Of a stretch of DNA of 64,000 bases, positions 499-55,053 are shown piece by piece. Made by a program: the position numbers and the translations under genes. The notes under the pieces were generated by a model. The model did not search any database and was not told where the DNA came from. It saw only the letters and a list, made by a program, of their open reading frames with translations. Every line of letters starts with the position of its first letter. Positions within the stretch are counted from its first letter, which is position 1. This DNA comes from Seison nebaliae (lineage: Eukaryota), in assembly GCA_023231475.1 (NCBI GenBank), contig JALJEE010002959.1, forward strand, positions 1-64,000, written 5' to 3'.

Positions 499-505
499 TA
501 TAAAA
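499..505 (+). promoter_or_regulatory. TATA-like box upstream of the structured RNA element
   Basis: TATAAAA(GG) about 40 nt upstream of the first helix at 542. Weak evidence in AT-rich DNA. Confidence 0.3.
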
Positions 506-541
506 GGAGAAGAAAATTAGAATATTGTGAATTTTAATTTT

Positions 542-996
542 GCGCGTTAGTGAGAACGTTAAATTTTATTCAATTTTGCATTTCTAATTATCTTTCCTTT
601 TAGAAAAAGAACGAACATCTTTCACTAACGTGCTATTCGCCTTGATGGGTCTAGTTGAAGCGGTTGTGCCCATTACCTCTTGGCGACACTTGGGTGTTCT
701 GATGGGCAGGTGTCATCCAATATGGTAAAGAAACGTTCTCAATGGTAACCATTGAGCGGTTATCGAGAACTATTTCTGAACCTATTGTCCAGGTATATCT
801 ATGATATACTTGGGACTCAGTCTCCTCCAAAAACAAACGGCTGAGTTGATCGACATCTGGTGGCAACATCCACCCAGTGGGCGGGGTAATTGGAGCCTCC
901 GCATGACCTATCAAGGGCAAAATTTGTAATAACCGGTTCGGTCTCTCATCTTCTGGGCTGAGGGAATAAGTCCACGGCCCGAAGAGACCGGACCGG
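542..996 (+). ncRNA. Unidentified large structured ncRNA (possible Sm-class RNA), probably containing a 46-nt spliceosomal intron
   Basis: GC-rich island with nested helices 542-555/620-633, 640-651/905-916, 667-674/701-708, 709-714/852-857, 718-787, 788-814, 815-846, 881-902 and 933-946/983-996. The non-Watson-Crick positions within these stems read as G-U on the + strand. AAUUUGUA at 921-928 precedes the terminal hairpin. Confidence 0.65.
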
Positions 997-9184: not shown

Positions 9185-10814
9185 TTACCACAATTCATTT
9201 TTCTTCCATTTGTGGAAGAGATCGGAGAGACTGGTAAGAATTGGAACGGATACGGGAAGGAAAAGTGGAACATAAATTGCAAATTTCTGATCTTCTGGAA
9301 AGTAGAGACATTCCAATAAAGACGGATCATAAAAGGCAGTTTCTGGAAAGAAGAAATATTTTATGAAAAATAAATTCATGATAAAACCTGATAATTCATA
9401 AGCGAGACAACTCTCGTGATAGACTTGATGGGAAAATTTTCCGTTTCGTATTTGAGTAAGAGCGAAATTGATTTTGTTTAATGAGAGTGAGATTCGTTGT
9501 TCAACTTCGTCTCTGATGACGATGTTGGAGATACGTTGCAATAGTGATGATAATGATTTTAGTGTTTTACTCACCCCGATGATATTATTTAATGTCCGTT
9601 CGATTTGCCATTTCTGTAATTTGATTTCGTTTGGAATAATTTCATTTTCGTCCATCTGTTTATGAATGAAAATGAAAGATTGGAGGAATGAAACGAAAAT
9701 GAACTTCGATTTGGAGATTTTTAAAGAAATTTCTAATTAATACACCTTTATATTTTTCCACGCTGATGGTTTCCGTCTTCTGATTATAGATGATGATATT
9801 GCCCCAATCTTCACTGATTAATTCATTGACAAATTGATTCTTCTTATCCGTTTGGAAGACTAAAGGATAAGAATTGTTTGGCGTTGGAATTAAGATAATG
9901 GAATTGATAGTTTTCTCCAATTTGACATTGGACAAATGTCGATCTAACGAATTGAGAATTGGCGATTGTTGGAGAAGAGGAATGAAATAAAATTCCTTTT
10001 GACTCATCTCCATGACTCGATGAGAAATCGGAATATCCGTCTCATATTTGCTCAAGATTTGTGTGGAGAATGTGACGTTGAAATAATTCGAATATTTTTC
10101 AAAAGTTTTTTTCATAAATTCTAAAAATGAAATGGTAAAATTTTGGAGATGAGATTGAAATACAATTGAACTGTTTATAATTTTATTCATGTCCCATTCA
10201 TAATAAGGAACAATATCACGTTGACCGTGGAAGAAGGAGACGAGAGAAAAGGCCAAATGGAAATTGGGCGAATAGTTGAGTTGATTCGTTTTCTTCCCGA
10301 AGAAATTGTGATGAATTTCCGTTTTTACGAAATGGAAAAATTTCTCGTTGAATTGAGAGGAATGGAAGAAGATTGTATTCGTCTGGAAACCATAACGGAA
10401 ATTCGTTTCTTCATTCGTTCGAATGAGATAAATTGTGAGATCATTTCCATCCGAATGATGAATTTGACGATGGATGTCGTCGAGATGATATTGAGTAATT
10501 GATTTCTCATTCAATTGATCGATTTGTCGATTAGTCAATAAATGATTTTGATTAATTAAAAATGGAGAATGATTTTCATTCAATTTCTTCAAGAATGATT
10601 CGATGGAAATGGATGAATAAATGTTAATGGTGAATTTGGGATGAATATCATCGAAAGATTTTGGCAGTTCTGAAATATTTTCATATGGTAACAATGAACG
10701 ATATACTCTCGTTGTCATCCACCATACCGGTACGCCAACAACTAATACGACGATGGCATAGATGAGAGTTGAGATGTATAATCGTGTAGAGGAGATACCA
10801 TACCTGAATGACAT
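9185..10814 (-). CDS. PIGS: GPI transamidase component PIG-S
   Basis: N-terminal TM GVPVWWMTTRVYRSLLPY and C-terminal SETAFYDPSLLECLYFPEDQKFAIYVPLFLPVSVP. Introns 10121-10171, 9656-9704 and 9343-9387. Confidence 0.95.
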
Positions 10815-15689: not shown

Positions 15690-16000
15690 TGCACGTTCGC
15701 ATCCGCCGATATTTTATTTTTTTATTTAGTCGAAGTATTACACTCGGTTTTTGGCCTTTTTTTTACTCTGCATGTAGATGTAGATATGTATTTTTTATGT
15801 AGAATTTTTATACAGAATTGTATATAGAAAATATATTTTCTATGTAAGCCAAATGTAGAATATAAAAACAGAATAGAAAAAGGCCAAAATTCTGGTGGCC
15901 AAATACTTCGACTAAGGATAAAAAAATTTAACCATCTCTTTAACTTTATTTTTCCTGTCTTCATGTTTTTTTGGAGTCAAAGGGCCAATGCGAACGTGTA
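15690..16000. mobile_element. Palindromic MITE (Tc1/mariner-like ends)
   Basis: Terminal inverted repeats TGCACGTTCGCAT / ATGCGAACGTGTA. Inner inverted pairs TTAGTCGAAGTATT / AATACTTCGACTAA and TTTTGGCCTTTT / AAAAGGCCAAAA. Confidence 0.75.
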
Positions 16001-26870: not shown

Positions 26871-29800
26871 ATGGATGGTATTAAATTGATGAAGTTTCAT
26901 TTCACATCCAATTTCCAAACAAACCGCAAAACCACCAACAACAACAATCGATATTATTCTTACCATAATAAATTTCATTTCAATATATTCCTGTTCTACG
27001 GTTGTCTCACCATATTCGTCAATGGATTATTCGCTCAATCATCATTCCGTTAGAATTCGTCATCTGTTGCTGATTCTCTTTAACGATTCTTCTCCAGTCG
27101 AATTTCCATGGCAGAAATTTACAATACGACAATATGAAAAAGCATATCTATTTTGTCGTAAACATCATCCGTCCAAATATACGGTCACATGGAAGAAGCG
27201 ATCGCCGGATGATTCAATACAGAAGATTCTTTCAATTAATTCCGATTATGAATTTATTGATAAATATCATGAAATCTTAAAGATCGATAAAATACTTCAG
27301 AAACATTCTGGTACATATATTTGTCAAACAAATGCAGGTGTCAATGAAGTGAACGTGAATGTGATACAAAGTGAATATTTTCATTTTTTATTTTCATCAA
27401 TTTCTCATTCTCTCATCAAATCGTTTAAGATTCCCCAAATATTTTCCGTTTGAAAAATTCGCAGCAATCAGACGAAACGAGAACCATCGAACTTGGTACG
27501 AGAGCTCAGATACTTTGTCGAATCAAAGAATTTTATTTAAATATTAATGTTTTCTGGTTTCACAATTATCGTCTACTATTAACTGATAATCGTCGTTCAA
27601 TTGGTACCAACGGTAATTCTTTCCATTTTCCACTTCGCCAAATCATTCACACATTTTCATATATCCCCAATTTAGGAACGCTCATCATCCATAAGAGTGA
27701 CGAAAGTGATGACGGAGTTTATATGTGCTCGATCGTTATGCATCGAAATGAAATCATTTATTCTCCAACAACCACATTGAACGTCAGAGGTTTCTTTTTT
27801 CTTCTTTCAACAATTTACAGTGAAATAACTCAAATCATAAATTTCAGAACGTGAAGTACATCCATATATCACTCGAATATTTATCGCCAATTATTTCTTG
27901 AAGAGTTCCGTCGATAAATCAGACAAATCGATAACGAACTTCTTCATGCTACCATTTTCTGGCGAATCGTTACTACGTCCGAAAAAACCGATTTTATTAA
28001 GTTGTGTGGCGAACGGTTCTCCACTACCCAAAGTCGAATGGCGACAAAAGCCAAGTTATTTTTCATAAATTCTTCTATAAATTTCAATTGTCGTCGATAG
28101 ATAATCGATTATTGAGAGATAGTGATCCATTAAGAATACGATCTGTTACTAATATCAATGATCTGAGAGAATTATCGTCATCAATCTCATCTACCTCATT
28201 CTATGCCCAAGCGATAATTTCGTGCAGTGCAAAGAACCGTTTAGCGACATCGACGATAATGATAAATGTTAATTTTCCATCTAAACAATTACCGAAACCT
28301 GTCGATTTGATGATTCGTGTCAACATTCCCAATTATGTGGAAGTTGAATGGAATATGAATGAAATAATTTATTTCTTCTTAATCGAACCCAAATCTTCCT
28401 GTAATAATTTCCATTCGACGGGAAATTATGTTGGGAAATCATTAACGTCAGCAACCTCATCGAAATATTTCAAGGAGTATTGTCAATCGAATACGGAGCA
28501 GAAAATGAATAACATTCTCATCAATGATGATGTGGTCTTCTCCGATGAATATAATGCACAATATAATATCGATTCATTAATTTCGTCCAAATCATCGACA
28601 AATTTCAATTCGCAAATGAATGTCAGAAAAGTAGCTCATTTGAATCATTTCAATTCGTTAGGTATTGATCACTTCCAAATTAGAACGTGCGAAGTATTTC
28701 GTCGTTCTTCCATCAGCACATATCACGTACCATTATCCCAGACACTGTGTCTCAATCAAACGGTGAAGATGCAGGATTTCATTATGAATCATCGACGCGT
28801 AACAGTTAATTTATTCTCTTCAATTCTATTTCATTTTTACTTTATTTTTTATTTATCAAGTTAAAAAATTTGAAAAGTGCAACATCATACGCTACACACG
28901 TCCTGGCTCATAACCAGATTTATGGTTATGGTAAAGCGTCGGAAGCACTGATTTTCCGCACACATCGTTCATCTAATACCAGTTGGATTTTCGACAATTG
29001 TTTGCTTAATCTATTCAAATGATTTTTATAGTTAATATTAAATGTCGAAGTGTAACGGCAATGTCGGTGAACGAATCAGTAATATCGTTAGGATGGAATG
29101 TTTATGTTCATAAAGAAGAGGAAGTATTCTTATCAGTTCGTAATATTTCTTTGAAATCACTTTCACTCAATTCTCTCTCTTTAAGTATTTCAAGATGTAT
29201 TATACCGCTGGTCTAGGTAGTCGTCATCCGATGGAATCCTGGACAGTTCATCGAACTGATCATTTATTATTCCAACAAAACTTTTTGGTTGATGCCGAAT
29301 TACTGGAACATCATCATATTTATGTGAGATTGTGTGCATGCTTATCGAATGGACTTTGTGGAACATTGTCCGACGTTCTCACCATCCCAATTGACAATGT
29401 CAGATCAAACCGTTTCACATTTCATCACTTTCGTCATCGGTCGACTAATTTGACTTTTTTAATTTTCAAAGCGATCAAAGCTAAATATGAAATTTTGGAT
29501 TTTAAAGGAGAAGTTCTCTCATCAAATTCCCTATTTGTTCATTGGAAGATGAAGGGCATTGTATCACCAAACGAACCGTCACGTTATCTCCTACAATTTT
29601 GGTACGATGATGAAAAAATGAGTTTCGTAGAAAAAATTCCGAATTGAATTGTCAATAATTTTCGTTTTGAAGGAAATGAAAGTCGATTGATTGTCAGAGA
29701 CATTTCCTCACAGATTCGTTATCTTACTAAAAGTGTACGATGGTCGATTGTGTTGGATGATCTATTATCGTATAGAGCATACAATTTGCAATTGCAATTG

Positions 29801-32800
29801 GTGGATAGGAAAGCTGATATTCTTGCAGTAAGTAATATTGTTTCATTAAGAACTCGAGAGTATTGTTAGTACATTATTTATTCCTTCATCATTCCGTTTG
29901 GCACCATTGCGGCCATTATATGTCAAAGACGTAATAAAGCACAAGATATGCTCTGTTCTCACGACTTGATGTCGGGAACATAAAGAAAAATGATTCTTCA
30001 TCACAACAATTTCTTGATGATAGTATTTGATTGTTGATTTTGATTATCATTCACATTTCCTTATTTCATTGTGCAATTCTTCAGGTGCTTTCCACATTGT
30101 CGCCCACACCATCACTCACTCGAATCGCAAGAGACTATTACCAGAAAAATAATAATGAAAAAATTTTATGTTCATCAATGAACGAATGGTTAATAATCAT
30201 CTCTAATGATTTTTCAGAATTAAATGTTTATTTCCCAATAAAACTTTCTTTCCTGAAATTAGTTGAGATGACAAAAATTTCCAACACCAGTTCGTTCGTT
30301 CGTTTATTTTTGGAGGAAAATTTCCATCCAAATTTCCATTACCAATCGTACTGAGAACATTAGGTAACGGAAGTGTCGAATTTCATAATTTATTATTTGT
30401 TTCCAACTTTAATTCCTTCCCAATTTACTTCTTACTCGTCTTCTTCTTCTTTTTCTTCTCCTTCTTCTTCTTCTTTACGAGGGAATTGCGGGGAAGATTT
30501 CCCAATAACTAAAGGTAAAAATTTCAAGAGAATGATGAGACACTCAAAAGCTGACGAGTAATTTCTCGTATGGGTCAGGCGTGAAAAAGAATTTGTTTCT
30601 TTTTCTATCCTTCATCGTCGACCTGCTCTAACAATAAGTAAGTTATGGAAATTATGAGAACTGCCATCCTGAATTACTAAACTGATTTTCTTCTCATTCT
30701 TCATCATCTTCTTTTTTCCGAAGAAATGAAATTGTACTTCCGCCAATTGAAAGCGAAACGTATCAATTAGGTTCATCGATGATGACGACGATGATAATGA
30801 TAATGATGATGATGATGATGGCATCAACAATTAACATCCATAACCTACACACAATAACCGAAGTTAGCTAATATGAAGTGGTACTTGTGAAAATGAAGAA
30901 AATAAATAGATAAATAATATTTCGTTTGTTACTCGGGTGTAATGAGTGAACATTCTTATTATTATGATTATTAAGAGAATTGATGAATATCATCCGTATT
31001 AGATGTTTTCTTTAAGTATTGCGATTCATCCAATATACATGACTGAGAAAAAAAAACGAGAGGAATTAATGGGGAAAAAGAAGAATGTTCGTTTAGAAAT
31101 CGTTTGGGATAATGTCGACAATTGTTTGCAATGGGAAACGCAAAAGGAAAGGTGACGAGGCAAAAGAATTATTCTTCTTCTCGCAGGCAACTTATATTGG
31201 AATGAGGAGAATTGTTTCTACCCATTTTCCAGAAAGATGTAAGTACCAAACAATAACAGGAAAAAATATGAAAATCTGTATTACCTGCCAAAGGCACATG
31301 ATGATGATGATGATCGACTCCATCATATCGACACACTTCGTTCTTTTGTGGCGGTAGAGGAATATGACTCTGTTCAACCCAATTTCTGATAATACTGATA
31401 ATAATCATAACAACATATATGATGACGTTACTGATGAATTTTAATCAGGTAATTTTTGTCAAACATAGTGATAAATCTCACGTTACTATCTATATATATC
31501 TGAACATGCTCAATAAATAAATTTGTATTAAGGCAGTTCGATTGGCAATGAATATTATTTCTCCTTTCCGCGAATAACTGATTTTCTCCTTCCTGCAAAA
31601 TTTCATTCGATTTCAACGATTGCCACATCTTAGTCGAAATTTTCTGGAAATAAATCAAATTCTTTTCAACTGCCTCTCAGTTGTTGGTCGATTGTGTGGT
31701 AAGTTCGATAATTTCCGGAAATAATCTCTCCATTTCCTTCATCGATAAATTTAATAGATGAATTTAATTGGAACTGATTAGAATTTGAGTAAGAAACTCA
31801 TTCCCCGTTCGACTGTCGAGTTATGTGACGAAATTGAATGATATGAGTCGATGAAAGTTCTGCCGACGACACTCCTAATCGTCGATACACGTGAAAATGA
31901 TTCACTTTCCACATGTTTCTCAGGAATGCTTTCTCATCGATTCCATCGCCGTCCTCTTTCTTTATTCTTTCATTAGAACTAATAATTAATGGTCGTTCAT
32001 CTTCAGAGAAATCAATAAATTATTATTCCAGTTCCACTCATTATCTTCATTATATTTTTCGTGTTCATTATTATAAGGCAATTCCCGCGGAAATCGTCAA
32101 AAGAGAATTCTATACAATAATTAGATGGGAGAAAAATAGTCTAATGCAATTTAGTGAGAGGGTAGTCGATGTACAATCATTGATTTTTATAAGGCCTCAC
32201 CATGCGGTTTTTCTATTTCATTTCTAAAATTGTACGACATCGGTTCGTTTCATCTTTGTTTAGTTTCGCACAAATGATTATTCTAACATTATTCTCACCA
32301 ACATCTCTTTCGTTGGCCACTGATTCCTTCCACTGAACATACATCTGTTATCATCATTATTTTCCATTCTCACCATCACAACCATCACCACCATCACCAT
32401 CATTGGAAGAATTACCATAAAACTCAAAAGAAAACTTTCCCCCCATTTGGAAACGATGTTGGGTCCAAGAAGAGGAATATCGAAATATCTTCATTGAAAA
32501 ATGATTAAATTGCATTCGAATGAACAATTTCTCTAATTGTTCTACCGACGACTATCAAATGGAACCATTCACCTCATATCAATTAGGAAGGGGTTGGAGA
32601 ATGTGAGAATTTATCGATCTTCTACCAAATGTTTAAGTGATGTTCTGGAGGAGATTTCGATGTAAGTAATATCCGAACGAAAACTTATTCTTCTCCTCCA
32701 ACTTCAATTAATTAAAATCGTTTTAGATTTCTTCATACATCTGTCTACAAAATGAAAAAATTTGACGTTGATGACCGGCATCGTTTCTTTATGTAAATAC

Positions 32801-38800: not shown

Positions 38801-41800
38801 AAATGATTTCATTATATTTTCTTAATTCTCTCGAAATTCCTTTAAAACATTCATTTGGTTTGAGCAAATAATATCGACGATACCAGATAGATAAATCAGT
38901 TGATGTCGAATATTTTTTGATTGAAAGTTGGCGGATGTTTAGTAGATCATCTCGAAATGATTTTATCACATTCCTCACAAGCATTAGTGAGAGCATCGAA
39001 AAATGTAAATTGTATCGAGGATGTCTTTCGGCCATTCTTCAAACCATTTCATTATTGACACAATGTTGAGAGTGATTTCTACTTCCTTTCCTCAACTAAA
39101 ATTGTTCGGGATCTCCAAATGTTTATCTGTTTGTGTGTGTGTGTGTGTGTGAATGTGTGTATGTGTGTGTGGAAGGGGAATGAATGTGAAAACGAGTGAA
39201 ATTTGAAGAGAATTATTTTAACAAAATTAACGATACTGAACATATTTCCGTCGTTCAACTCATTCCTGTCAATTGAGTAGTGTAAATAAGTAGTGGAAGG
39301 AATGGACGAATAGATAACTGGAGGAAACTTCTTCATATGATAAGTGGATATTTGAGTTCAATATTTTCCGTTTGTCGACCGAATATCCTTCGAAATCATC
39401 TAAAGGAGATTTATTTTCATTACAATATTATTAAATAATTTTCGATTGTTCATTAATTGAAAGAAAATTGTCAATTCGCGACAGAAACAAATTATATTTT
39501 TCTTTCTACGACTTTCCCACATAGATCAGTAAAAATAAATGCATCATCAGAATTGTATCAGGAAAATTTAGAAATTTACAGGTTTTTCTTCCTTCAATTT
39601 TTAAAGAATAGGACAGGTTATGTTAAAGTTTCTTAAAGAAACGAAATTTTCATCCGTTTACTAATTCGGTGACCGAGTAGAACAATTCTGAAATCAGAAA
39701 ATCCGGAGGCAAGTTGTATCATTATGGTAATATAAAGTAATACTGACACTGATTTTAGTAAATAATATATTTATTATGAGCACAAGAATTTACATCAATT
39801 ATTTTACGTACTTTTGGCAATGGTCTCCAAATTGTCTAATCGCCGAATTGTACGTGGTTCGATTGAGAAACGTGTGCTGTTTTAGAAGAAGGAACGTGTT
39901 CTCGAACTTTTAATTTTGATGTAGAATTGATGTTGTTCGGAGAGATGGGAAGTGATGAGATATCTACCATATTCTAATTTGTATGAAGTAGTAGAAAGAA
40001 GGTGGATCGATTGGTAAGAGATGATACCGTGGACCACAAACATCTATTGACAGATCAGTCGAATAGATTTTGATAGATTTTTGTCGTCTATTGATGATTT
40101 TTGTGTTTCCTCCCAGACATTTTCCAATTTCATCCTCCAATTTCATCTTGCTTTCTTACTCTCCCAACTAGTATAGAGGCGGATGGTCGATTTGTTATAA
40201 GGGGGAGAATGTTGTTCTTATTTTTTCACCGTTTGTCGTCATCCTCGTTATTTGAGAGATGACTGTTGATATTGGAAGAAGGAATGAGAATTGGTGGAAG
40301 GAGATGATGATTATGACAATAATTTCTTATGATGTATTGAATGTTTGACATAAAATTTCACATATTAATTAAAAGTAAAAATAATTGCAGATACAACGGA
40401 ATAACCATAGAGGATGATTACATCATGATTCTGAAGAGTATTCGATCGTATAATAGTGGAGCGGTGGGGGTGGAACACCTGATAATTCATTTGATGATAT
40501 TTTACGATTATTATCATCAATAATGACGATACAGATGGAATACAAATGAATATTTATAAAGATTTCATTGAATTTTTTCATACGATCTCTCTAAGGGGAA
40601 TGACCAATAATGATGAGGAAATTCTATTCTTTTCTCATCTTCCTCAGAGATTAGATGGTAAGAATGAGAAACCTCTTGTTCATCTACCCAAGTCCTTTTA
40701 TTATTATTTATGAAAACTATTGTTAGTTTCCTTTCTTCAGCTACTTTTAGAAGAACATATAATTTCAATTAATTAAAATCCAGAGAAAAAATTGTCTTTC
40801 ATCTCGTACCTAACAAATTGTTGCTTTGGAGGATGGACAATCGAGAAAAAACTGAATGAGATAATTCGATTAAATTATCGTTAATTTCATACAACTATCC
40901 ATCCCTATCTCATCTCGAATTCCTTCTCAATTCTCTTTGCTTTATTTCATTAACGATGAGTGGCATTTCTTTCTGCTTCGTTGTACATTTTACGATTTCT
41001 CCGGCCAAAAACACTTCAATATTATTTTTTTCTAAAAACTTATTCTGGTTATTTCCAGCTATTAAAATTGGATTTGAATTTTGTCAAAAATTTCCTCTAA
41101 ATTTCTCATCATCACTCTCTTAAAGATCATTTCTCCATTATATTCGAATCGTCTCGTTAATTTGGAATAATATTATCAGTTTGTCTTGTCAAGAGTGGAA
41201 TTGGAGCATATATTTTGCTCAGTTATGATGGATAATGTAGTCATGTACTCATGAGATCAACGAACAAATGGGCACAAACGGCGTATCAATTAATCGCCGT
41301 AATTGCCAGTGTTTCTTTCAGTTACTCTTCATTGATATCGATCGAGAGAAATGGAATAGATCATCACATTATTTACAAGAATCATCGAAGATCGATTGAT
41401 TGGAACAAATCGATTAAACGATATCGTCGATCATCACCAATATGTGACGACTATCTCATTGTACGAGTGAGAATAGCTCATGTGGATGAGAGAAGTATAC
41501 ACGTACGATATAAATTACGACCACCATCAACACACGATCAATGTGAACGATTGATGGAGAGACAGAAACATTATCCCGGTAAGTCATCCTCCTTCCCAAG
41601 TCAACAACGAGTGGTGGAACGACGTCTATTTCAACTTGACATTACAACTGCTGTCATCAAATGCTTCGTCGATCGACATCTATTCAAAGAATCTCAACGA
41701 AAGATCTCCGATTTGTATAAGGAAGTTGAATATGTTTTCGACGATCTGAAACCATTTACGAAATATCGAATCACTTTCGATTTGTACGACGAATTACGTC

Positions 41801-44800
41801 GACGCATTCCAATTACATCATTTCAATTTGATGCTGTAACGAAACAAAGCGGTTTGGCTTCAACTTATCGCTTCTAGCTCTTTCTGAAGAATATTCATTG
41901 GAATATTCTCATTTCCATCTTTCGACGTCATCTAACCAGATTGTCTGGTTTTCCTATTAATGATTTGGTGGTTAAGAGGAAAACTAATTTCATTTTCTTT
42001 CCGATTCATTACGTTATTTATTGAGATGACGAAACTATTATCATTTGTCCATTTCTCTCATTTTCATTCTCCAAAAAACCGTCATCATTACCATCATCAT
42101 AATTCTGACTATTCATTGATCATTAGTTAAAAAGAATGATGTATTTCTTATCAACAAAATTTCTAATTTTATTCATTTTGTTGATTATAGTGCCGAGTGA
42201 ACCATTAGATGTAATGGCCAGTATTCATAACTCAACCGCAATCAGAGTCAGTTGGCGTCCGCCCAAATACCATAACGGAGAAATCCGTTCATATGGTGTC
42301 AAATATCTGGCATTTGGAGATGAATCGAAGGTTTTGCATTTCATTCATTATTATTCTCTTATTTTCGACGATTTTGTTATTAGAAAGGAAAAATCGATTT
42401 AACGGCAAATCATCGTTCAGTCACTATCACATCTTTGTTACCTGAAACCAAATATATTTTAAGTGTCTTCGCTAATACAATTGCTGGTGATGGAAAGCAT
42501 AGTTCCGAAATCGAAGTCACAACACCATCATTAAGTTTTTTTCATAAATTCCTATTCGGTTTCTATCTCCGTTTTTAGAACCGTTAACTGCCATAGGTTT
42601 TAACGCCTACATTGAACATTCCAATAAGAAAGGTGCGATAGCAAACGGTAATTCTGGATTACTTATCGTTGTGCATTGGACTTATTCGCGGAAAGCATTC
42701 ATTCTACCTGAATTCTTCAATTTATGGGTTTGGAGAAGGAGTTTCCCATTGACATCGAATAGTCAGAAGAAACCACCGTCATATTTAATAGCCGGTCCGA
42801 TTCGAATTGAACGTCGTGCTACAAGTAGTTACAGTTATTCAATGAAAGCTGGTTAGTTGTAATGAAAGAAAATTTGCTTGTTCTTCAAATATCTTCATCT
42901 TCTCTTCTCAGCATATGGTTATTGTTACGAATTTTCGTTGGAAAGTCGAACGAGAAAATTTCGAGGAGAAAGAAATGCAACGACGAGATTATGCACTTGG
43001 AATATGTCTCCAATTTATTTGCAGAAGGCAGTGAGTAAATTGAATATCTCTATCGATACAAACAAGTACGAAGCATATCATGATGATAATTCGAACGTGA
43101 ATCCTCAAACATTTCCTCAAATATCATCGAAATTTAGAAGCAGTTTAGTTTCTGATTTTTTTCTTCTTCTTTTCTCGAAGTTCGAGACTCGTAAATTATG
43201 TGAATAAAAAATAAGATAAAATTTCCTCATTTACCTCAACTAACTAATGAGAATGATGAAAATGGGGAAGACTATAAGGAGAATAGCGATAATGATTGAT
43301 TTGAATAATCTAATTAAAAAGAAATTATATATAGCAGATCACTTTACCTTCCTCGCAGTCAATGTTCTTCTTCTTTAGCGCAGTTCTTTAACCGAATTTC
43401 ACTTCGACATTCCTCTTTGACGTATCGTTCCACTAAACAAATGGGAATTGGTAAACGAAATAATTCTTCCGAATATTTTCACAAAAACAGCATCTTTATG
43501 GAAATTTAATCGTCTATTATATTTTCAAGAACTACATTCCCTCGTGTGATAAGGTAAAGAAAAAATAATTTCATAATTGTTCTGCGTACCTTCCACGAAA
43601 CAGGAAATGTCAAAAATTAAATTGGTGGAAAGTTACATAAAAAAGAGGAGGGAATGAATTGAGCATAATTTTTTCTTCTTCCAAATGAATTCCTTGTGAA
43701 ATATTTTAGAGTAAGTGTATAGTATTGGGTGAATTATTTAATGAATGAATAATTGTGTAAACCGTTTTCTTTTGCACCGAATAGAATTAAATTCGTAATT
43801 AGTCCAATATCATGATAGAAATTCTTCTAATTCTTTTCCTCCTTCAGAATCAGAAAGAATGACAGTCTCTAGAATTGTAATTATTGTTTCATAAATTTCC
43901 CATTTAAGTATTGAGCATTAGTTCCAATTTAAGAAGGATCTCATCCGTTAAAGTTGTAAGGGGAAATTAATTTTTTCGTTAACATTAATTCAAATTCATG
44001 TACACAAATTCATATTCGATAGGCAATACTCATCTATTGGAACAACCTTTCGAAACCTTCAATTCTCCAATAGGCCAAGAAATTTTTTACGAAAGAAAAT
44101 CTAGGTTGAAAAATCTGGAGAAAATATTTTGAATTTGTTGAACACAGTCCCAAATCAAATCGACGGATAGTTCGTAAAATGTGAGGAAGAAGAATATGGA
44201 ATATTCTTTGCATTTAATTATCTCATTATAGTTCGCATTATATCATAAATTTAGGAGGAAATTCCCCATCTGTCTCGTAGTACATGAAACGCATACTTGC
44301 TATTCTTATATCGATTGTACATGAGCGCTCGTTTTCTTTTATTCGATAACGAATGAACTTGCACTTTACACAATTTCTCCGTAATTTGCTTACGATTGTC
44401 CTTTTATTCATATTAAATTTCCTACTCCACTTCTCCTTTCTCCACCGAACGAAAATGAGTTGGAATATGTATCATATAACTGGAAGAGAAGAACTGTAAC
44501 TATTACCACTATTTTTGGTTTGAAATTGTACATGGTGCCATTATACTTGAATAATAAGGAATGTACAACATATTTAGTTATTCGACGACGACGACGATGA
44601 TGACGATGATGACGACGAGGAACCTAGGGCACCGTAATAGAATTATGGAATAATTTCTTGTGTTATTTGTTAATCAATTCATTACTCTCATTTTTCCATA
44701 TGAAAAGCAATATATTCTTCTATGTGTATCATATGTTATTGTTGTTGTTGTTATTGTTGTGATCATTTATTATGATTATTATCAATATTTACAATTTTTA

Positions 44801-47800
44801 TCAAGCTAAAAGATATAGAGTATTATTCGACTGATCACAATGGACGATTTATTCGTACGAATATACATCTGTGAGATTATCCATAGATGCATTAAATAAA
44901 AAGTATCGTTTCTTTTATATGAATCTGGGAGAGGTCCCTATAGATATACAGTCGAAAAGTAGAAAGTAAAAGTAGTCTCAGAAAAAAATACAGTCTAATT
45001 TTCTTCTTCTTTCTTCATCGAATTCTATATGACAAAAAATAAAATAAATTTAGAAGAAAAAACTTTCTCGCACACTTCCTTTCACCATATCCTTCTTGTG
45101 ATGTGTACCAGATATTATTATTAGTATAATTATTATTATTTAGTACAATCTTTCATATCGATCAAATAATAATTTCCACCAACATTCGAAATGGAGGAGA
45201 TTGGTGTGCAGAAGTTCATCCTATTCGATTGATGGAGAAGATAGAGGACGATATGTATATGCCGACACGGAAACATGTGACTTGACTGCTGTAGTTATAT
45301 CGGAAAAGTAATCAATTCTCGATTTCTACTATGTTCCACTGATAATTCCCATTGGAACTGAACATATCTTTATCGAAACGTCAATCGATCTAATGAATAG
45401 TCTCATATTACTATTTATGTAGATTGAGCTTACATCCTTACTCTGCACGAAAAATGCTCGATGTATTTTATGAGTTTAATTAGAACGTATTGATCGATTG
45501 TCGTGTGTATGCAAGAGAAGAAAAGAATGCCACAAACTCCATTTAACCAGAAGCTGTCGGGAATAGCGGGCAAATGACAAACCGATAAAATTTAGGACAT
45601 ACCTATTCAACTGATCGTACATACTCTAACTGATATGTATTTATGGTTTTATGTTTTTCTAATGTATATAAATATATATATATATATCTTCGTTCCTTCA
45701 TTCGTTCGAGAACGAATATGAATGATGAATGCATGATTCTTCCATTTTTCCGTTTCATTCCAGTTTAATGATATTTATTTATGTAAAAAAGAATTTTATG
45801 AGTTTTATTTGAAATATTTAATATTTCTTCCGATCATTCGTCCAATTTTATAATCAAAATGCAAATCATTCAGTTAATTACAATCTCCAAACAAAAACAT
45901 AAACACCAAACTAATAAACAACTTTTTAAATCGATATCCGATCTCCTTCTCTTTCATCAACTCATATAATTACTTTAGTTAATTCCTAAATTAGTTTAAT
46001 CACATCTAATCCTTTTCTTTTGTTTTCTCAAATTACAGTTATCGAATTATGTTTTATGAGAACATCACTCTCATATGAGTAGTTTGATATTCATTTTTGA
46101 CCAATAACGAGCAGCAGCTGCACCCTATTCAACGGAAATGTATCTTGTGGTTATTAATCCGGTTTTCTTCTTCACCTATTCTCTACTGCATGAATCCATC
46201 AATTATTGTGCAATATTAGGAAATAGACGACATCATTGCTCGATATATATTTATGTGTGCGTGTGTGTGAGGAGAGTAATCTGAGAAAGAAATAGTATTT
46301 GTAGGAAGAAGGAACTGTTGTTCGTGCAGTCATCGAGAATTCATATATTGAATAGTTGAGCATGCAATTTCATTGTATAAGTGGATTTGTGACAGAAAGA
46401 ATGAGAAAAAGGAAGAAATTCCTCTTCTTCCCATGCTCAGGATTAGGTGGAGGGGTAGAAGGAATAATTTTTAAATGAATTTCTGATTCTTAAATTGTAA
46501 GGATGAAATGAGAACGAATTGTGTCAGGAAATAAGTAGCATAGAACAATTGAAGAATAAACTTTTATTTGAATGATGTTTCCTCTCACGCTAAAATACTA
46601 TTAAAAAAAAGTAAAGAAACAATTCCGCTAATAAGTGATCGTCGAGAGAAATATCGATATCATTCGTCCGTTTCTCGTCTACTCAATCGAAGTTTGTAAC
46701 GGTAAGACTAACTAATATTAGTTATATTGCCACAATCAACAACTTAATACTACAATCTGATAGTGAGCGAATGATTGGGCGGACTAAGTGAAAGTTCTAC
46801 TGTACACACGAGTAATATGGGAGAAACCATACATTTTCAGTAGTTCAACTACTATGGATATTTGAGAGGAAAAAATGAACGACTCTCACAATTGCATAGT
46901 GATGACAAAACCGATTTATATACATAATTGTTATTTCATTCTACATTGTAGTTTCTCCTTCAGAAATTTGACGGAATATGTGATGAATATATGAATATCT
47001 CCTAGAGAATATTTATTATTCCATATCATTATTTATTTCCACTTTTTTCTCCTTTAACTTTCTCATTCCTCTTTTTCGATTTTCAATCGAAAGATCCTCG
47101 CCCGTTTTCCTTCGATTGACTTCTCCTATTAGCATTTTCCGTTCAATGAACATCATTTCCAAACTGACGGGAAGATGTAGTACTATATGTCCTGTGTGCC
47201 CAACTTCGGTCCCAGTTGTTATTAAATATTACAATGATTAGATAGACAATTGGAGAATGGAATATTCATTTTTTCCTTCCCCCCTCCTCCCATTGTTCTC
47301 AGCTTCCCCAACTATGACGAAATAATTGGTAAGAATCAACTGCAAATTGTCATTGTATTTCCTTCGTTATGATGCCTTTTTCTCCTCCATTCTTCTCCAG
47401 CGTGACATCGACAGAAATTGACAGCGGAAAACATCCTAATCGTACTAGAGGAAAGAAAAACGGTTTTTTTTTCTGGTGATAATTCACTGAAAAGATTGAT
47501 ATGCACTTAATGGGAGTTAAAGAAAAATAAAGAATACATTCTCTTCAAATTATCTAATCATGCCAATATTCTCCCCCATTCATTGCGCAAGCATTATTCG
47601 ACGGTCGATAGTTACATGTTTTCTCTTAAGAATAACGAGACACAACTGCATAAGTAACGACTCTGAGTAATTGGAATGAGACATAACCAATATTCAGGAA
47701 ATAACCTTATACTTCACATTTATGAAACTTTCACATATATATCTTTCCAATTTCCTCACAACAAATTAAATTTTCTTTCTTTTCATTTATTGCAACAACC

Positions 47801-50800
47801 AATTTCACATTGTAGTAATTTTTTAAAGAAATTTAATATAATTTTTGTTAATAAGAATTTAACCATTTTTTTTTAAATTTTTTCAATAAAAAGTAAATGA
47901 AGAACATTAGAAATCGAAAAACTATTGTAGATTGGATGGTGAGATGTGATGAAAGCAATCCCCATAAAAAATCTCAATATTTTTTAATGAAAGAAATGAA
48001 CGAAATTGAAATGAATGTGCTAAAACTGATTTGGCATGTTAGTTGAGGAAATGTTGGTGAGTGTTCTACTAGTACACAGTTTGATAAGGAGGATGATGTT
48101 CAGGGGATAAGTGTAGATTCGATGTTCATAACTCATATGTCGTTCATTAAGAATAGGAATTGAGAAGGAGGAAGAAGTGCGAATTTAATTGTTCCAATTT
48201 CCTCAATTTTTTTTAGGAATAATACAAAATTCACGCCCTTTTGGTTAGATGACGTCGTTTTCTGATTTGGTATTGAGATCGACGATACCACTAATAATGT
48301 TCGTCACACATTCTCATCTGAATCGATCTTTCGTATTATTATTCATGCGATTGAGGGATTGTAGGAGCGCATCATCTCTACCTTCGGCATTATTGTCCTC
48401 TCACTCGACATTTCTTTTTTTCCATTAAAAATTGTTGATGGAATTCCTTATTCATTCATGTTTCCCAATTCCATCGTCAATGCCCCCAATCTTTCCTAAT
48501 ATAATCTGTGCATTTTAATGAAAAATATTAATAATAAACGGTAATATTCGGAATATATTCGGGAAAATAGAAGACGACAACACCCAATTGACTGTTATAA
48601 GAAAATTTTATATTCCACAATCATCGTTTAGATTCTGTTCATTTAATTTCGAGAGATTATATCAGAATGTTGAACTGAGGTGATTTGGAACATTATGAGA
48701 ATATAATTAATATTTATTGATTAGTTTTTCTTCGCTTGTTTCTTGTTTTTCCGATTCAATAAGAATAATAAGTTGGAGAGAAATGATTAGAATCTTTTTA
48801 ATAGAAAGGAGAAAGTTAATTTCCTTTTGAAGTCGAAAGGAAATGGATGGCGTTCAATTAGAACATTGTCCAAGAGAGTCGTCCCTAACCATCTAATGGT
48901 TTGGGATACAATGAATGTTGGTTGTTATGTTGCCTTAGTCGATGATGGAGATGAAATGGATTTTTAAGGAAGTGTACTGATTTTTTATATTCAAATGAAA
49001 TTATCTTTCTACTACGTATCATATTTACTCCGTGTTTTCCCTCCCACCGACATTATCTAATATGATGGAATCATTTAGCAGAAAGAACAATATCAGTATG
49101 AAAGGAAATTATATTTATGAATGTTACCTTTATTTATGAAGAGTAGTAACCACTCTTCTTCTATTCGATTCGTGAACATTCACTCCAATTGAGCGATCTG
49201 AACAATGTTTCAATGCACATAAACCAGAGTGACAATGTGCACGTTTAATGTAGGAAGTTGCTGAACATATTAGTCCATGGCAGGGGTGTTAGAAGAGACA
49301 AGTTACTTGTATTATCTCCCACGATAATACAAGTAATATAGAAGACGAATTTGAAAATGCTTCTCATTTCTAATATTGGAAAAACATTGCTGGTGGTAAT
49401 AATGTCGGAGAATACTGTCATTTCCTTTCTAATAAAATTTTCTTATTAGAAATTCTATTGTGTCAATATATTATGCAATAGGTGCTTGTTCGATCATACT
49501 ATCATTCTTCGATATATGACACGTTCTAAATTAATGTCGACATCTACCCATTTGCATCATGGCGAATGATGGAATTTTTCTTCTTCTTCTTCTTCTTCTT
49601 CATCTTCTTTCCACATTATCATCGTTGTGATGATGTGAACATGAATTATGCGAATTAACGAATTTCATAATGAACATGTTATGATGAATCAACTGGGCGA
49701 CTGGTAGAAAGGAAACGATAATTGAAATGAAGTTATTGATCTCTTGTTAAATTATCAGAGTTTCATCATGAGAATCGAAATAAGACAAATTCAATTCTTT
49801 TAATCGAATTTGTAAAACTCATCAGAACTCCAATGAAGATCTCTTCTCTAACGATCTGAGAAGGAATTCATTCTCTCCTTGCCATTTTAATACTTATCTC
49901 ATTATTCACTTCATATGAATTAGATAAATTACCTTTCTCCGTTTGGTGTGTGTTGATGAAAACATTTCTTTGTTATCTATCAAAGAAGATGGAAATGTTT
50001 CGTCGAACCATAAATTGACAGTCGATGACATGAACATTATTCGGAAATGTTCTTCCATTTTATTCTATTACTTCGATGGCCAATGACGATATCTTATTTC
50101 AACATTACTTTCATCGCAATTCTTTTCGTGCTCATGAGAACTACACGTCTCACTTCTCCTGGAAGACACGACGTCTATAAGAATGTCTACGAAGATATCT
50201 CGAAGAATGTCGACGATCATGTCCTTTACACGTACGAAGCGAAAACTTCCAATATCAAAGGTTTCAACTCCTACCATTCCCAATCATCGAACCTTCTGAG
50301 AAGATAAATTGAAAAATTACTAAACTTAATACTAAAAAAATTTATGGAAATAAAAAGGAAATTTAATTTTTTAGGAAATTAAAGAAAAAATTATTAAGAA
50401 ATTCCATTGACATATTTGAAGCAGTAGAAATTCTATTAAACTTCTCCTTTTTCACTCTTTCAAAACAATTTAATTATTAATTTTTTTTTTAGAATCGTTG
50501 GACCAACCAAATAATCTGGGATTATCACACATCTCTCCAAACGCAGTACGAATTGTGTGGGAAGTGCCACATGTGATGGAAAGCAGCACAATCGCATCAT
50601 ATCAAGTACGCTACAAAATAGTGACGAGAGAATATCATGGGAACCGTACAAAGACACCAGAAGGCCTCCTCTTATCTGATTCGAATTCGAATATCACCAA
50701 CACCTCTTCCAATTTCATCGAGTTGCATCATCTTCAACCGGAAACTGAATATATCATCCAAGTGACACCGTGGCTACAAATTGCCACCTCCGACTATCAG

Positions 50801-53800
50801 AGTCCAATTACTTTTCATATAGAAAAAGGGAAATCGTCGGAAACTTTTAGTTTCGTTACACTTTCCGTTAATCAACCAGCACCGCAAATTATTCGAGTGG
50901 ATCGACCTGATCCAGGTACTATCATCAATCTGGAATGGGAACCTGTGCGCGACATTTATGGACGACACGTTCCCGTCTATCGTGTCTGGTATTCGGATGG
51001 TGGTCATTGGAATGAAGTCGTCGTACCTAATCGAACGCAAATCCGTTTGACGAATTTGCGGCCTCGTGCCAGTTATATTGTAGCGGTCCAATCTACATCT
51101 TTGAGAGGAAATACTTTAGTGTTTGGGAACATGTCCGAACATCATGTATTACGTCCTTTCACCGGTTATATTCATGATAATGATATACCGAAACCGATCC
51201 GTTTACAAATTATAGAAATGTCGGCCGATTCCGCCAAATTGAGATGGTTCGAACCGATGTTCCCTGATAGTCATGAAAATCGATTGAAGAGTTATATCAT
51301 CACATATGGTGGTAATGGCGAGAAGAAGTTTGTGAATATGTTCGGGAAAGAACAATCGTTGAGAATTGAAAAGAAGACGACTAATCGAATTCCTGCAAAT
51401 CAAAGAAGAACCGATTGGCTAATAACGAATTTGGAACCGAATACTCAATATTATTTTAATGTATCATCAGTGACAAATGACAATCGTATAAGTCAACCAA
51501 TATCCGTCATCAATGCGACGAAAGAAAGTGTACCAAAATTTTTAACGGCACCGGCTGTAATCGGTGCAGGAAAAGGCAATGTAGTTTGGTTGAAATTAAC
51601 ACAAACTACTCAGAGATATGGAAAGGTAAATTATTATCTTCTCTTTGTTCTTATGCAGAATTCGAGCGAACGAATCAGTACGAATTCTATACATCTATTC
51701 GACGACCGTAATGTGTTGAGAGATCGACGTCAAGATATTCCGTTCGACATACATGAAATTTATTCGGTCGATTCTCTCAGAAATCGATACAAGAGAAATT
51801 TGAAGTCAGATATCACTTATCCAAATCAGAGGAATGATTCGTTATATATTTCGGCGAATATATCGAGTGAAAATTTCGTTAAAGAATTCCCGTTAGGTGA
51901 TGGAAAATTTTATAATAATTTTATCAATCGAAAACTTCATGACAAAGTTTTCTATCGTGTTTTTTTGAGGGCGTGTGGCAATTCTGATCAATCTAATCAT
52001 TATGTGAGTAGTACGTTCAGTAACTGGTTCACCACGAAAGATGTCTACAAAACGAAAACGTCAGGAGTTTCGACGAATTTGCGCAATTCGTCAATCTATG
52101 ATGGTTTGCATGCAGGTAATAATTCGGGTGATAAACAAAGAAAGAATATCAGTCTAATTTGGATTATTGGAAGTGTTTGTGCAATCATCTTCTCCTTATT
52201 GATTTGTGTGTGTGCCATATTATTTTATCGAAGTAATTATGGAAAACGAAAGAGCCATAATCGAAACCGCCATATTCATCATCAGAAGAATGAAGAACAA
52301 AACGGTCTGATTAATGGGAAGATATCGAAACGATTAAAACATCAACAACAACTTGATGCGGAGCAGACGCAATTGCAGAATGAATATAAAAATATTATCG
52401 GTAATGATTTACATCCAGATGATATTGATGGTCAATTGAATCAGATGGATAACTGTAAAATTCCATTAGTTATTTCAGAAAAAACTAATAATGCTTCCGG
52501 ACTAACTGCCAATGGAATCACTAACAAGACAACAGCAACAACAACAACCACACACATGTCGAATAATATGACAAATACATTGCACATAAATAAGAAGAAC
52601 AACAACAACAGTGACAATAAAATGACGAATGAAATCGATAATGAGATGCGAAATCATTTTAAGTTGATACAAAATTCAAATTCGTCAAATTGTCCAAATC
52701 CGTCGTCGAATATACAAAACGGAAATTTATTAACTGTTGGCGATGCGAATCAACAACCGACGGATTTGTATATTTCAACCGACTGTGTATTGACGAGTAG
52801 TGCTGGAAATGGTACGGGAATCTCCGAATTATCATCAATGGCATTATCGTCGTCCGGTGGATTCTATAATAGTTCGATGCCTTTCCACATGAATGAGAAG
52901 AATCGATTAAAAAGTTATTGTTCAGCAACGACCGCTAATAATGATCCGGTAGATGCAGTGGAAGCATTGAGATCACAAAATACGAATACATCGTTACATA
53001 TGCATCCTCCCATACCAGCAGAACGATTACAATCGTATATCGAATATTTGAAGACGAATGATTCCATAGAATTGACAAGAGAATATGAATCGATTGAAAC
53101 GGGACAACAATTCGCTTGGAATATTTCCTTATTACCACAAAATCGATCGAAGAATCGTTATGCTAATGTCGTTTCATATAATCATTCGCGAGTGATATTA
53201 GAACCTATGAATTCGAATACTAAAAATATACTCTCCCCATCTAATCTCGGTACATCATCATTAGATGGTGAAAGTAATGATTATATTAACGCCAATTATA
53301 TTAGTGGATATCGTCGATCGAAAGCGTACATAGCAACTCAGGGACCATTACCAGAGACGTTTGTTGATTTCTGGAGGATGATTTGGCAAGAGAAGACTCC
53401 CATAATTGTTATGTTGTGTCAATTGGAAGAGAAGAATCGTATTAAATGTGACCAATATTGGCCGTCTCGTGAAAGTGAACAATATGGGAATATTGTCGTT
53501 CATTTATTAGAGTGCACCGAGTATGCATACTTTACTATACGTCTCTTCCGTCTTCATTTGATGGATCCAATGAATCAGGAACAATCCCAACAACAACCAC
53601 AACAACAACAATATCATCAAGTTAGACAATTTCAATATACGGCATGGCCCGAACATGGCGTACCAGAATATCCAACGGCATTTATTATGTTTGTTCGACG
53701 AATTCAAATTTGGAAGAGGAAATTATTCGAACGACAATATTTAAGTGATTATTCTCATGATGAATTCTCCACACCATCACCCAGTACGACAACGAACACG

Positions 53801-55053
53801 AACAATACAATCACAACCGCTACAACTACCACTGGATCGACTAACCAAATCTCTCCTAATAACATTCCACCAATCGTCGTGCATTGTAGTGCTGGTGTTG
53901 GACGTACTGGTGTTTATATCGTACTCGATATAGCACTAGATCGAATGAGTCAAGGTGAATTGAATGTCGATATTTATGGTTATGTCACTCATATGAGATC
54001 TCAACGCAATTATGTTGTGCAAACGGAAGAGCAATACATGTTCGCTTATGATGCGACATGTGAAGCAATCGAATGTGGTGAAACGGTTGTACCAGCTCAT
54101 CTTTTAAGAAATCATGTACATAAACTATTGAGATCGGTAGCAAAAGCAACTGCTTCCAATTATTCAGCCGCTTCACTTTCCGTCACAGAAATGGAATTGG
54201 AATTCCGTCGTCTCGGTGCTGTTAAAACGATTCCGGCGAAATTCACGGCTGCTAATATGGTTTGCAATAAATTCAAAAATCGGTTAGTCAACGTCCTCCC
54301 ATCGGAATGGAGGAGAGTTCCACTCAAATCCGTTTTCGGTGTGGATGGAAGTGACTATATCAATGCGAGTTATATTGATGGGTTTTGGAAGCAGCATGCT
54401 TACATTGCCACACAGGGACCATTAGCTGAAACGACCGATGACTTCTGGAGAATGTTATGGGAGCAGAATAGTTGTATAATTGTCATGTTGACGAAATTAT
54501 GTGAATTGGGTCGAGAACGATGTCATCAATATTGGCCGTCGGAACGATCTGCTCGATATTCATATTTCATTATTGAATTCGTTGCCGAATATTTTATGGG
54601 TCAATATATTTTACGAGAGTTCAAAGTGTGTGATATCAGAACGCAGGAATCACGAATAATTCGACAATTCCAATATCTCGATTGGCCGGAACAAGGCGTC
54701 CCCAAATACGTCGAATGTTTCATCGACTTCATAACGAATGTACATAAAACGAAAGAACAATTCGGATTAGAAGGACCGATCACTGTTCATTGCAAGTTCA
54801 TCAATTTCTTTCTTATTCTTCTCTTTCAAATTTCTCCATTTTTTCTAGTGCTGGTGTTGGACGTACAGGTGTCTGTATTGCGCTAAGCGTAGTTTTGGAA
54901 GAGATAAAATTTGATCAAACAATCGACATATTTCAAACCGTACGACTGTTAAGAACACAACGACCAGCTATGGTGCAAACTGAAGATCAATATCAATTCT
55001 GTTATCGGTCTGCCCTCGAATATTTGGGATCAGTCGAAAAACCAAATACATAA
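26871..55053 (+). CDS. Lar: LAR-family (type IIa) receptor protein tyrosine phosphatase, long isoform: signal peptide, 3 Ig, multiple FN3, TM, PTP D1 and D2
   Basis: Ig motifs ([30 protein letters not shown]), FN3 repeats, [28 protein letters not shown]1 [15 protein letters not shown]2 [26 protein letters not shown]. Inferred introns: 27049-27097, 27371-27429, 27613-27675, 27790-27847, 28055-28100, 28805-28860, 28982-29031, 29136-29185 (or 29194), 29412-29471, 29622-29672, 29865-42190, 42331-42383, 42535-42578, 42852-42911, 43143-50492 (donor uncertain), 54796-54848. Confidence 0.9.
39133..39171. repeat. (TG)n microsatellite, imperfect
   Basis: Direct reading of the sequence. Confidence 0.8.
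41251..41851 (+). CDS. Alternative first coding exon B of the LAR gene (signal peptide, furin-type site, FN3)
   Basis: ATG, hydrophobic [20 protein letters not shown]3 ending [11 protein letters not shown]...TKQS. Phase-1 donor at 41852 joins 42191 to give KQSVPSEP. Confidence 0.7.
50047..50260 (+). CDS. Alternative first coding exon C of the LAR gene (signal peptide)
   Basis: ATG at 50047 or 50083, hydrophobic [24 protein letters not shown] phase-1 donor at 50261 is in frame with the acceptor at 50492. Confidence 0.6.

Follow-up and report, generated by a model that had tools for sequence, protein, structure and literature searches.

Whether an animal can carry a U1 snRNA whose 5' arm has changed to match donors of an unusual kind is the question raised by the locus studied here. 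Few features of splicing vary as little among animals as the arm ACUUAC of U1 and a purine at position +3 of the donor, and compensating changes in U1 are described, in the literature examined, for two amoeba lineages only. The original prediction held that a structured RNA encoded near the start of the window (the whole 64-kb stretch of DNA that was analysed) may be an expanded U1-like snRNA re-tuned to donors that begin with GTT. We examined the donors of the host genome, the predicted fold and motifs of the RNA, and the variation of the locus.

Splice donors of the host genome

The window has a GC content of 32% and contains animal genes, namely those for a LAR-type receptor phosphatase, an Ig/FN3 protein, an amiloride-sensitive channel, PIG-S and a WD40-RING protein. 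In a protein search, the LAR phosphatase domains reached 53-54% identity, to vertebrate PTPRS and one unnamed record, among the 120 matches listed, indicating that the host animal evolves fast and lacks a close relative among these.

Introns were predicted from the DNA in seven gene intervals (4526-58191), chosen after reading the sequence, with a model informed only by GT and AG, the reading frame, composition and a prior on length. Its two settings returned 29 and 32 introns. Extension of the parse to the RING gene or past 29848 was unstable and low-scoring and was excluded from the counts. Some of the 32 parsed donors may be shifted by a few bases, and two of them, at 10390 and 5944, disagree with a reading by eye. 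The introns are typically ~50 nt long, with 29/32 measuring 43-72 nt. Position +3 of the donor was T in 26/29 and 28/32 introns at the two settings, and a purine in 3/32. The p value for this excess of T was about 3e-9 against a frequency of 0.36 after any GT in the same genes, and 1.2e-6 against 0.46 T within introns. Position +4 was A in 15/32 and T in 12/32 parsed donors, +5 was G in 9/32 (p 5.8e-4), and +6 was T in 19/32. GTTAGT was both the consensus and the commonest donor hexamer (4/32), and 0 of the 32 parsed donors read GTAAG or GTGAG. On the exon side, -1 was G in 10/32, which amounts to no preference, and -2 was A in 16/32.

The host appears to be a small-genome animal whose introns start mostly with GTT instead of GTA or GTG. 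GTT donors with no preference for G at -1 are odd for an animal, whatever the RNA proves to be; such an animal is unusual in itself, and this is the best-supported result of our analysis. The case for GTT-type donors is now firmer than when it rested on five GTTAGT sites. The automatic parse recovered four of these (7518, 42852, 56137 and 57671), but the fifth, at 29865, was a donor in none of the parses covering it. The AG of this site more probably closes a 42-nt intron beginning with GTAAGT at 29828, because a hydrophobic, transmembrane-like frame begins at 29870 (by eye). This GTAAGT donor, which probably exists and lies outside the 32, argues against a complete shift of the donors.

The Ig/FN3 exons (26874-29985) end in the transmembrane-like segment from 29870, and may therefore belong to a receptor gene of their own, distinct from the LAR phosphatase exons at 41236-55053. 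Many parsed acceptors were weak or rich in purines, and only 3/32 parsed introns contained a CTRAY branch motif. With the parsed intron 54796-54848 spliced out, the signature Cys of the second phosphatase domain would be followed by Asn, where Ser is usual.

A strongly folding element with a U1-type Sm heptamer

The stretch from 621 to 996 is 49% GC, compared to 32% for the window. Folding was predicted at -159.3 kcal/mol for 618-1000 (z -7.42) and at -182.5 kcal/mol for 530-1010 (z -8.95), with 0/100 shuffles as good in either case, and the best two of 426 150-nt tiles of the window start at 901 and 751. A distant AT-rich tile (15751-15900, 27% GC, -44.5 kcal/mol) ranked fourth among the 426. 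Plus-strand frames from 604 reach 33, 31 and 49 aa at the longest; the minus strand has a stop-free frame of 159 aa, with its first Met at 87 and no Pfam match. An RNA from the minus strand was not preferred, as it folds less well (-157 versus -182.5; z -6.76) and has fewer G-U pairs (10/159 versus 15/158). The features of the predicted fold are as follows.

640-916, plus strand: large domain with a closing helix (640-651/905-916), an irregular rod (660-717/848-902) and a three-way junction; pair-keeping changes at 856, 873, 874, 900 and 910
718-787, plus strand: long hairpin with apical loop 751-757, reading AUUGAGC in the window and AUUGAAC in contigs; 737-768 kept in a second locus
789-813, plus strand: 11-bp hairpin, mean pair probability 1.00
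814-847, plus strand: 9-bp hairpin with an A/C-rich loop, mean pair probability 0.97
921-929, plus strand: Sm-like site AAUUUGUAA, whose first seven bases are the U1 heptamer AAUUUGU
933-996, plus strand: terminal stem-loop at the position of stem-loop IV, with helices of 14 and 6 bp; C958-G977 is U-A in other haplotypes

The closing helix and the terminal stem-loop 3' of it, both part of the U1-like arrangement first proposed, are present in this fold. The closing helix (12 bp, mean pair probability 0.94) occupies the position of helix H just 5' of the Sm site; it is longer than a usual helix H and lies 7 nt from the arm described below. Downstream of it, 917-932 is predicted to be mostly single-stranded. 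Here GCAAAATTTGTAATA at 917-931 agrees with the human U1 stretch at 12/15 positions, exactly as had been claimed, and the site ends differently from that of human U1, with AA in place of GG as its last two bases. One haplotype has T at 920, raising the agreement to 13/15. The heptamer at 921-927 is exact, with a chance of 0.004 in a 16-nt single strand (a window picked after the motif was seen), and among the listed variants 922-930 shows no change while 921 is A or G. AAUUUGU is described as the heptamer bound by the seven Sm proteins in human U1 (PMC4383343), and G replacing the fourth U of U4 as the mark of U1 in most species (PMC4383343, PMC4756616). The U7 Sm site opens with the same seven bases (PMC3390224), and the site found here does not literally fit the consensus PuAU4-6GPu (PMC2396436).

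Other hallmarks of U1 fared less well. The proposed U1A-like loop is present at 751-757 and closed by C750-G758 in the window, but in each of five sequencing runs the listed full-length contig over 756 reads AUUGAAC, not AUUGAGC. This 7-nt loop agrees with the U1A loop, as quoted in the original prediction, at 5/7 positions in the window and 6/7 in the contigs; the loop bound by U1A in human U1 is given as ten nt (PMC4383343). A U1-70K loop is missing, as had been conceded from the start, the best matches to AUCACGAA being 6/8 and both lying in stems. The four-way junction of U1 is replaced by a predicted rod of some 40 bp followed by a three-way junction, and forcing a stem-loop-I-like hairpin (667-675/700-708) was 6.7 kcal/mol worse and still gave no cloverleaf. 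Rfam gave 0 matches at the gathering score in the 64-kb window and thus no normal U1 there; relaxing the search to E 10 yielded 6 and 3 weak matches (E 1-9), none spliceosomal and none to a U1 model. The hexamer ACAAAC, the arm of Entamoeba U1 and the complement of GUUUGU, occurs at 833-838, probably by chance, in the A/C-rich loop of the third hairpin.

The element is non-coding, folds strongly, is under constraint and bears a U1-type Sm heptamer; it occurs in several haplotypes and with a second locus, and it is probably an Sm-class RNA gene. The most improbable of the explanations we considered is that it belongs to another known class (U7, SRP RNA, telomerase RNA, 7SK or U11) changed beyond recognition. 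A long rod ending in three hairpins is reminiscent of the S domain of SRP RNA, and 718-725 of its helix 5/6 junction; 539-545 and 617-624 similarly resemble the 5' ends of U4 and of a U7. The likenesses of 539-545, 617-624 and 718-725 were dropped since they have no Rfam support, and 617 and 620 vary. Inspection by eye showed no SRP54-type loop or GNRA loops in 718-847 and no complement of U12-type donors, and no Rfam match to such a class was obtained at E up to 10, with the models for SRP RNA, 7SK, RNase P/MRP, U3, U11 and U12 all unmatched. The heptamer is identical to that of U7, but U7 is described as the shortest snRNA, with its arm and Sm site side by side (PMC3390224), whereas about 290 nt separate the two here, and the four bases that follow the heptamer differ from those of the U7 site AAUUUGUCUAG.

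A candidate donor-reading arm

Two features precede the large domain.

604-623, plus strand: variable linker 5' of the arm, with changes at 604, 612, 613, 617 and 620
624-632, plus strand: candidate donor-reading arm ACUAACGUG, of which ACUAAC (624-629) pairs with GUUAGU; single copy in 530-1000

The sequence ACTAACGT stands at 624-631, where the original prediction had placed it. Since GTTAGT is the inferred donor consensus, ACUAAC complements the real consensus of the host. By log-odds over donor positions +3 to +6, the complement of the arm ranks 2/256 and the version with A at +3 ranks 74/256; the change in the arm at the position that reads +3 is the change that GTT donors require. Compared by eye with the U1 5' consensus AUACUUACCUG given in PMC3033335, 622-632 agrees at 7/11 positions. 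The hexamer ACTAAC occurs 26 times in 128,000 positions, and the chance of finding it in the 22-nt 5' flank is about 0.003, this flank having been chosen after the motif was seen.

The bases that follow the hexamer are less well matched to the donors. G630 predicts that donors carry C or U at -1, and only 10/32 parsed donors have these; this fits a lost preference for G at -1, not a newly gained preference. At 631, the majority allele is C, which loses the pair with A at donor -2 (16/32 donors) and strengthens a helix formed in cis (see below). Because it helps the cis helix at the expense of the -2 pair, 631C favours a cis role for the arm. ACUAAC also doubles as a branch-point motif, which counts against the U1 reading. 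ACTAAC lies 25-30 nt before the AG at 653-654, and an intron 546-654 is conceivable, but it would destroy the closing helix.

A predicted leader intron that would mask the arm

Upstream of the linker we identified three further features.

499-506, plus strand: TATA-like box TATAAAAG, a putative Pol II promoter element with a predicted start near 530; the only TATA-like match in 381-630
538-566, plus strand: invariant block with no listed variation in three haplotypes, which contains both the masking strand (542-555) and, at 546-551, the donor GTTAGT; it could instead be a proximal sequence element
546-603, plus strand: predicted 58-nt intron GTTAGT...TTTTAG, of modal length for the genome, whose acceptor scores above 26/32 parsed acceptors

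Sequestration of the arm by 542-555 had been raised as an objection to the U1 hypothesis. The pairing is real and strong, but rather than an objection it looks like part of the gene, since the masking strand is an intron donor under constraint. The masking helix (542-555/620-633) comprises 14 bp with a mean pair probability of 0.96 and encloses an AU-rich loop, and the duplex of 618-637 with 500-616 (-22.4 kcal/mol) is stronger than in 2000/2000 shuffles and 1056/1056 window tiles. It has two wobbles, both G-U on the plus strand, and the change 631 T>C turns G544-U631 into G-C. With 542-555 present, the unpaired probability of 626-629 is 0; without it, in RNA folded from 604, it is about 0.9.

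GTTAGT at 546 ties for the top 6-nt donor score among the 32 parsed donors, and with an 8-nt matrix it scores above 1/32 only, because of a G at +7. A comparable acceptor lies 43-72 nt downstream of 0.8-1.5% of positions in four non-coding stretches. The branch region and acceptor of 546-603 are predicted to pair mutually (581-587/600-606). Across three haplotypes over 539-650, variable sites numbered 0/29 in 538-566, 11/54 in 567-620 and 1/30 in 621-650 (p 0.0014, for the differences listed; two of the haplotypes have one further, unlisted difference each). The TATA-like motif, TATAAAAR, occurs 26 times in 128,000 positions. Further upstream, a segment at about 350-415 was found in other contexts in contigs, which would fit either a small repeat or a shared piece of promoter.

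The simplest joint reading would be a TATA-driven precursor with a short first exon, in which the RNA's own arm holds the intron donor, much as U1 holds donors in general, and splicing releases it. Transcription by Pol II would begin near 530, roughly 30 nt downstream of the TATA box. A TATA box in human snRNA genes is described as directing Pol III, while five T4 runs in 532-601 argue against Pol III transcription from 530 here. The arm in the precursor would form 14 bp in cis with the donor of the RNA's own intron, as the predicted folding and the constraint on the DNA suggest. As the masking strand is the donor of 546-603, splicing would free the arm, and the model of maturation changes: removal of 546-603, or trans-splicing that replaces everything 5' of 604, would leave at most 4 bp and expose ACUAAC. 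To judge by the motif and its position, 921-927, flanked by the closing helix and the 3' stem-loop, may be where Sm proteins assemble, and the cap may be trimethylated. The arm, given its complementarity, could pair in trans with GUU-type donors, with A627 reading the U at +3. We propose this route only tentatively, and place it short of an even chance: the gene would encode an expanded U1-like snRNA whose arm stays masked by a 58-nt leader intron in the precursor and becomes free on splicing. About 36 nt would stay 5' of the arm in the spliced RNA, which counts against it; to our knowledge, no known U1 carries such an extension.

The main rival, which we consider unlikely but serious, retains the cis helix and gives up U1 identity. 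The product would be an Sm-class RNA other than U1, about 460 nt long and running from about 530-540 to 996. ACUAAC would serve simply as one side of a helix, permanent or regulatory, by which the RNA conceals its own donor; the intron would be retained, and a normal or separately re-tuned U1 elsewhere would read the donors of the host. The superiority of the 14-bp helix over all shuffles, the location of both its strands in constrained blocks with a variable loop between, its strengthening by 631C, the pairing of the branch region with the acceptor, and the want of both a 70K loop and a cloverleaf all agree with this explanation. It requires, however, that the 7/11 match of the arm, the U1-type heptamer and the U1A-like loop all be coincidences, and the layout fits no known class in Rfam.

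The same expanded U1 might also start directly at about 621-624 from an snRNA-type promoter, with 538-566 as its proximal element, in which case the masking helix would never form. Constraint does resume at 621, with 1/30 sites variable in 621-650; an RNA from 624 has a mostly unpaired arm and an ordinary U1 layout, and the PSEs of human snRNA genes are described as lying about 50 bp upstream. We nevertheless regard this start as distinctly unlikely, since 538-566 sits 56-84 nt upstream, and the 14-bp complement with its G-U wobbles on the plus strand, the strong acceptor at the modal distance and the TATA box would amount to three coincidences.

A donor, an internal complement and an Sm site are also the parts of a spliced-leader RNA, which here would have a short exon at 530-545, a self-paired donor at 546 and the Sm site and stem-loops downstream; leaders of 16 nt are on record (PMC7986045). 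This reading is very improbable. The Sm site is 375 nt from the donor as against 20-60 nt by default, the SL RNAs described measure 80-107 nt (PMC7986045), an acceptor 58 nt downstream would permit cis-splicing, and the would-be leader is not invariant, with changes at 535 and 537.

Possible U1-like identity and comparison with known systems

Counted over both the leader-intron and the direct-start routes, we give the RNA slightly better than an even chance of working like U1, judging from sequence. The proposal of a U1-like, donor-re-tuned RNA is partly supported, by the donors, the arm, the Sm heptamer and the order of the parts, which is that of U1 (arm, helix, domain, Sm site, stem-loop); it fails on the 70K loop, the cloverleaf and an Rfam U1 match. 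As these U1-defining features were looked for and are absent, we have not filed the RNA as a member of RF00003. Lineages with odd donors, in the accounts given in bioRxiv 10.1101/2022.06.08.495308 and PMC13326754, mostly keep a standard U1, which also counts against the U1 reading.

Metazoan U1, as described in RF00003, PMC4383343 and PMC3033335, is alike in 7/11 positions of the 5' consensus, in a helix that ends three bases before AAUUUGU, in a 3' stem-loop and in a U1A-like loop. The RNA described here differs in its length (about 375 nt compared to about 160), in having a rod instead of a four-way junction, and in an Sm site that ends in AA. It also has no 70K loop, which in the human U1 particle is loop I holding the 70K domain (PMC4383343), carries a masking strand and an intron-like segment upstream, and matches no model.

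The nearest parallels are the U1 RNAs of Entamoeba, with ACAAAC for GUUUGU, and of Mastigamoeba, with ACGUAC (bioRxiv 10.1101/2022.06.08.495308). Their arms have likewise changed to match an atypical donor, and the RNAs were missed by standard searches, but they are reported to have the normal four stem-loops with 70K and U1A sites, and their hosts are amoebae. In contrast, the RNA here comes from an intron-rich animal with loose donors. Its change is confined to the base reading +3, its length is over double theirs, and it has no 70K loop.

Expansion by itself has a precedent. Budding-yeast U1 is much expanded, with a short helix H that has stem-loop I at its base; it keeps the arm and the Sm site and is not known to have the general U1 shape of Rfam. 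The closing helix of the RNA described here, unlike that of yeast, itself continues as a rod. Yeast U1 keeps ACUUAC in the 70/70 candidates given in bioRxiv 10.1101/2022.06.08.495308. Giardia U1 likewise has no recognisable U1-70K site and a divergent U1A site according to PMC3510501, but is small and cloverleaf-shaped, has no stem-loop IV and keeps ACUUAC (PMC3510501).

With respect to the predicted intron, the one here would sit 5' of the arm and have the arm's perfect partner as its donor, unlike those of intron-bearing snRNA genes in fungi. Papers on Rhodotorula reportedly describe such intron-containing genes. Fungal U1, U2, U5 and U6 genes can contain introns (PMC5855946).

Fritillaria borealis is also an animal with shifted splice sites, having 95% odd introns (PMC13326754). 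Its U1 5' end, however, is described as strictly preserved, and the shift is ascribed to U2AF paralogues and m6A (PMC13326754). In Cyanidioschyzon, the 5' end of U5 has been proposed as a donor reader (PMC10158995), so that a donor-reading arm need not belong to U1. No report of an animal case of such an RNA was found in the openly accessible literature searched.

If the RNA is the U1 of the host, it would provide a natural test, in an intron-rich genome, of whether U1 pairing sets the donor consensus. It would also mean that an animal U1 can drop the cloverleaf and the 70K loop and thereby escape Rfam searches, and may reveal a splicing-dependent switch in snRNA maturation.

Variation among haplotypes and a second locus

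Variation was taken from contigs of sequencing runs on one organism in two samples; of seven runs listed, five contain the stretch, and no RNA run is listed among them. The stretch is present as several haplotypes with alignable flanks, and no second copy of it was found within the 64-kb window. Changes at pairs were assessed from 32 listed variant rows of one alignment, with 977 and 986 from another, 65 rows of which lay beyond the listing. Among the listed changes at paired sites in 621-996, 13/20 preserve pairing, directly or by compensation, and 7 disrupt it. The 13 are without exception transitions, making 13/15 transitions at paired sites compared to an expected 55% (about p 0.01, calculated by hand). 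The two remaining transitions and 5/5 transversions break pairs; three of the transversions have their partner close to the end of the stretch, for which differences are unlisted. Positions 958 and 977 show a double change, C-G versus U-A.

These data bear on the possibility of decay or drift, in which the locus would be a copy of an old gene for a structured RNA, now out of use. One haplotype, in 3/3 of the runs that hold it, joins 526 to 716 with 7 other bases between; 527-715 is absent, and with it the leader, the arm and the 5' strand of the closing helix, and this haplotype is likely a dead allele or copy. In addition, the listed contigs and the window disagree at 697, 756, 839 and 856, which may reflect a rare allele or assembly errors, and 873-960 is quite variable between haplotypes. 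The bias of transitions towards keeping pairs, the double change at 958/977, the invariant Sm core and a GC content of 49% in a 32% window all stand against decay, which we judge improbable.

A diverged second locus was seen in 4/4 runs examined, from two samples, and is known from loose contig ends at window positions 737, 768, 841, 865 and 906. It matches only 737-768 and about 841/865-906. Nine bases past 906 it reads AACTTGTGG, which agrees with the human nonamer at 8/9 positions, and its Sm-like site ends in GG. The flanks of its hairpin differ from those here yet look complementary by eye. Metagenome matches to the 19-letter pattern of the 744-762 hairpin were rejected as chance, because 13 of the 16 loci had an open frame of 200 aa or more and none was alike beyond 26 nt.

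A doubtful extension of the U1-like reading is an animal that has shifted its donors to GUU and decodes them with two or more oversized U1-like RNAs of one family, the RNA of the present locus being made as an inactive precursor with its arm bound in cis to its own intron donor. The arm of the second locus could read another class of donor. With the arm locked on its own donor, a spliceosome would be needed to make more U1, and the arrangement would amount to a built-in feedback on splicing capacity.

Downstream of the element, at 1545-1780 and 1967-2359, seven copies of a 16-nt motif adjoin a 130-aa frame that has no Pfam match and resembles a remnant of a Mutator-type transposase. Further short repeats occur at 2477-2599 and 2724-2843.
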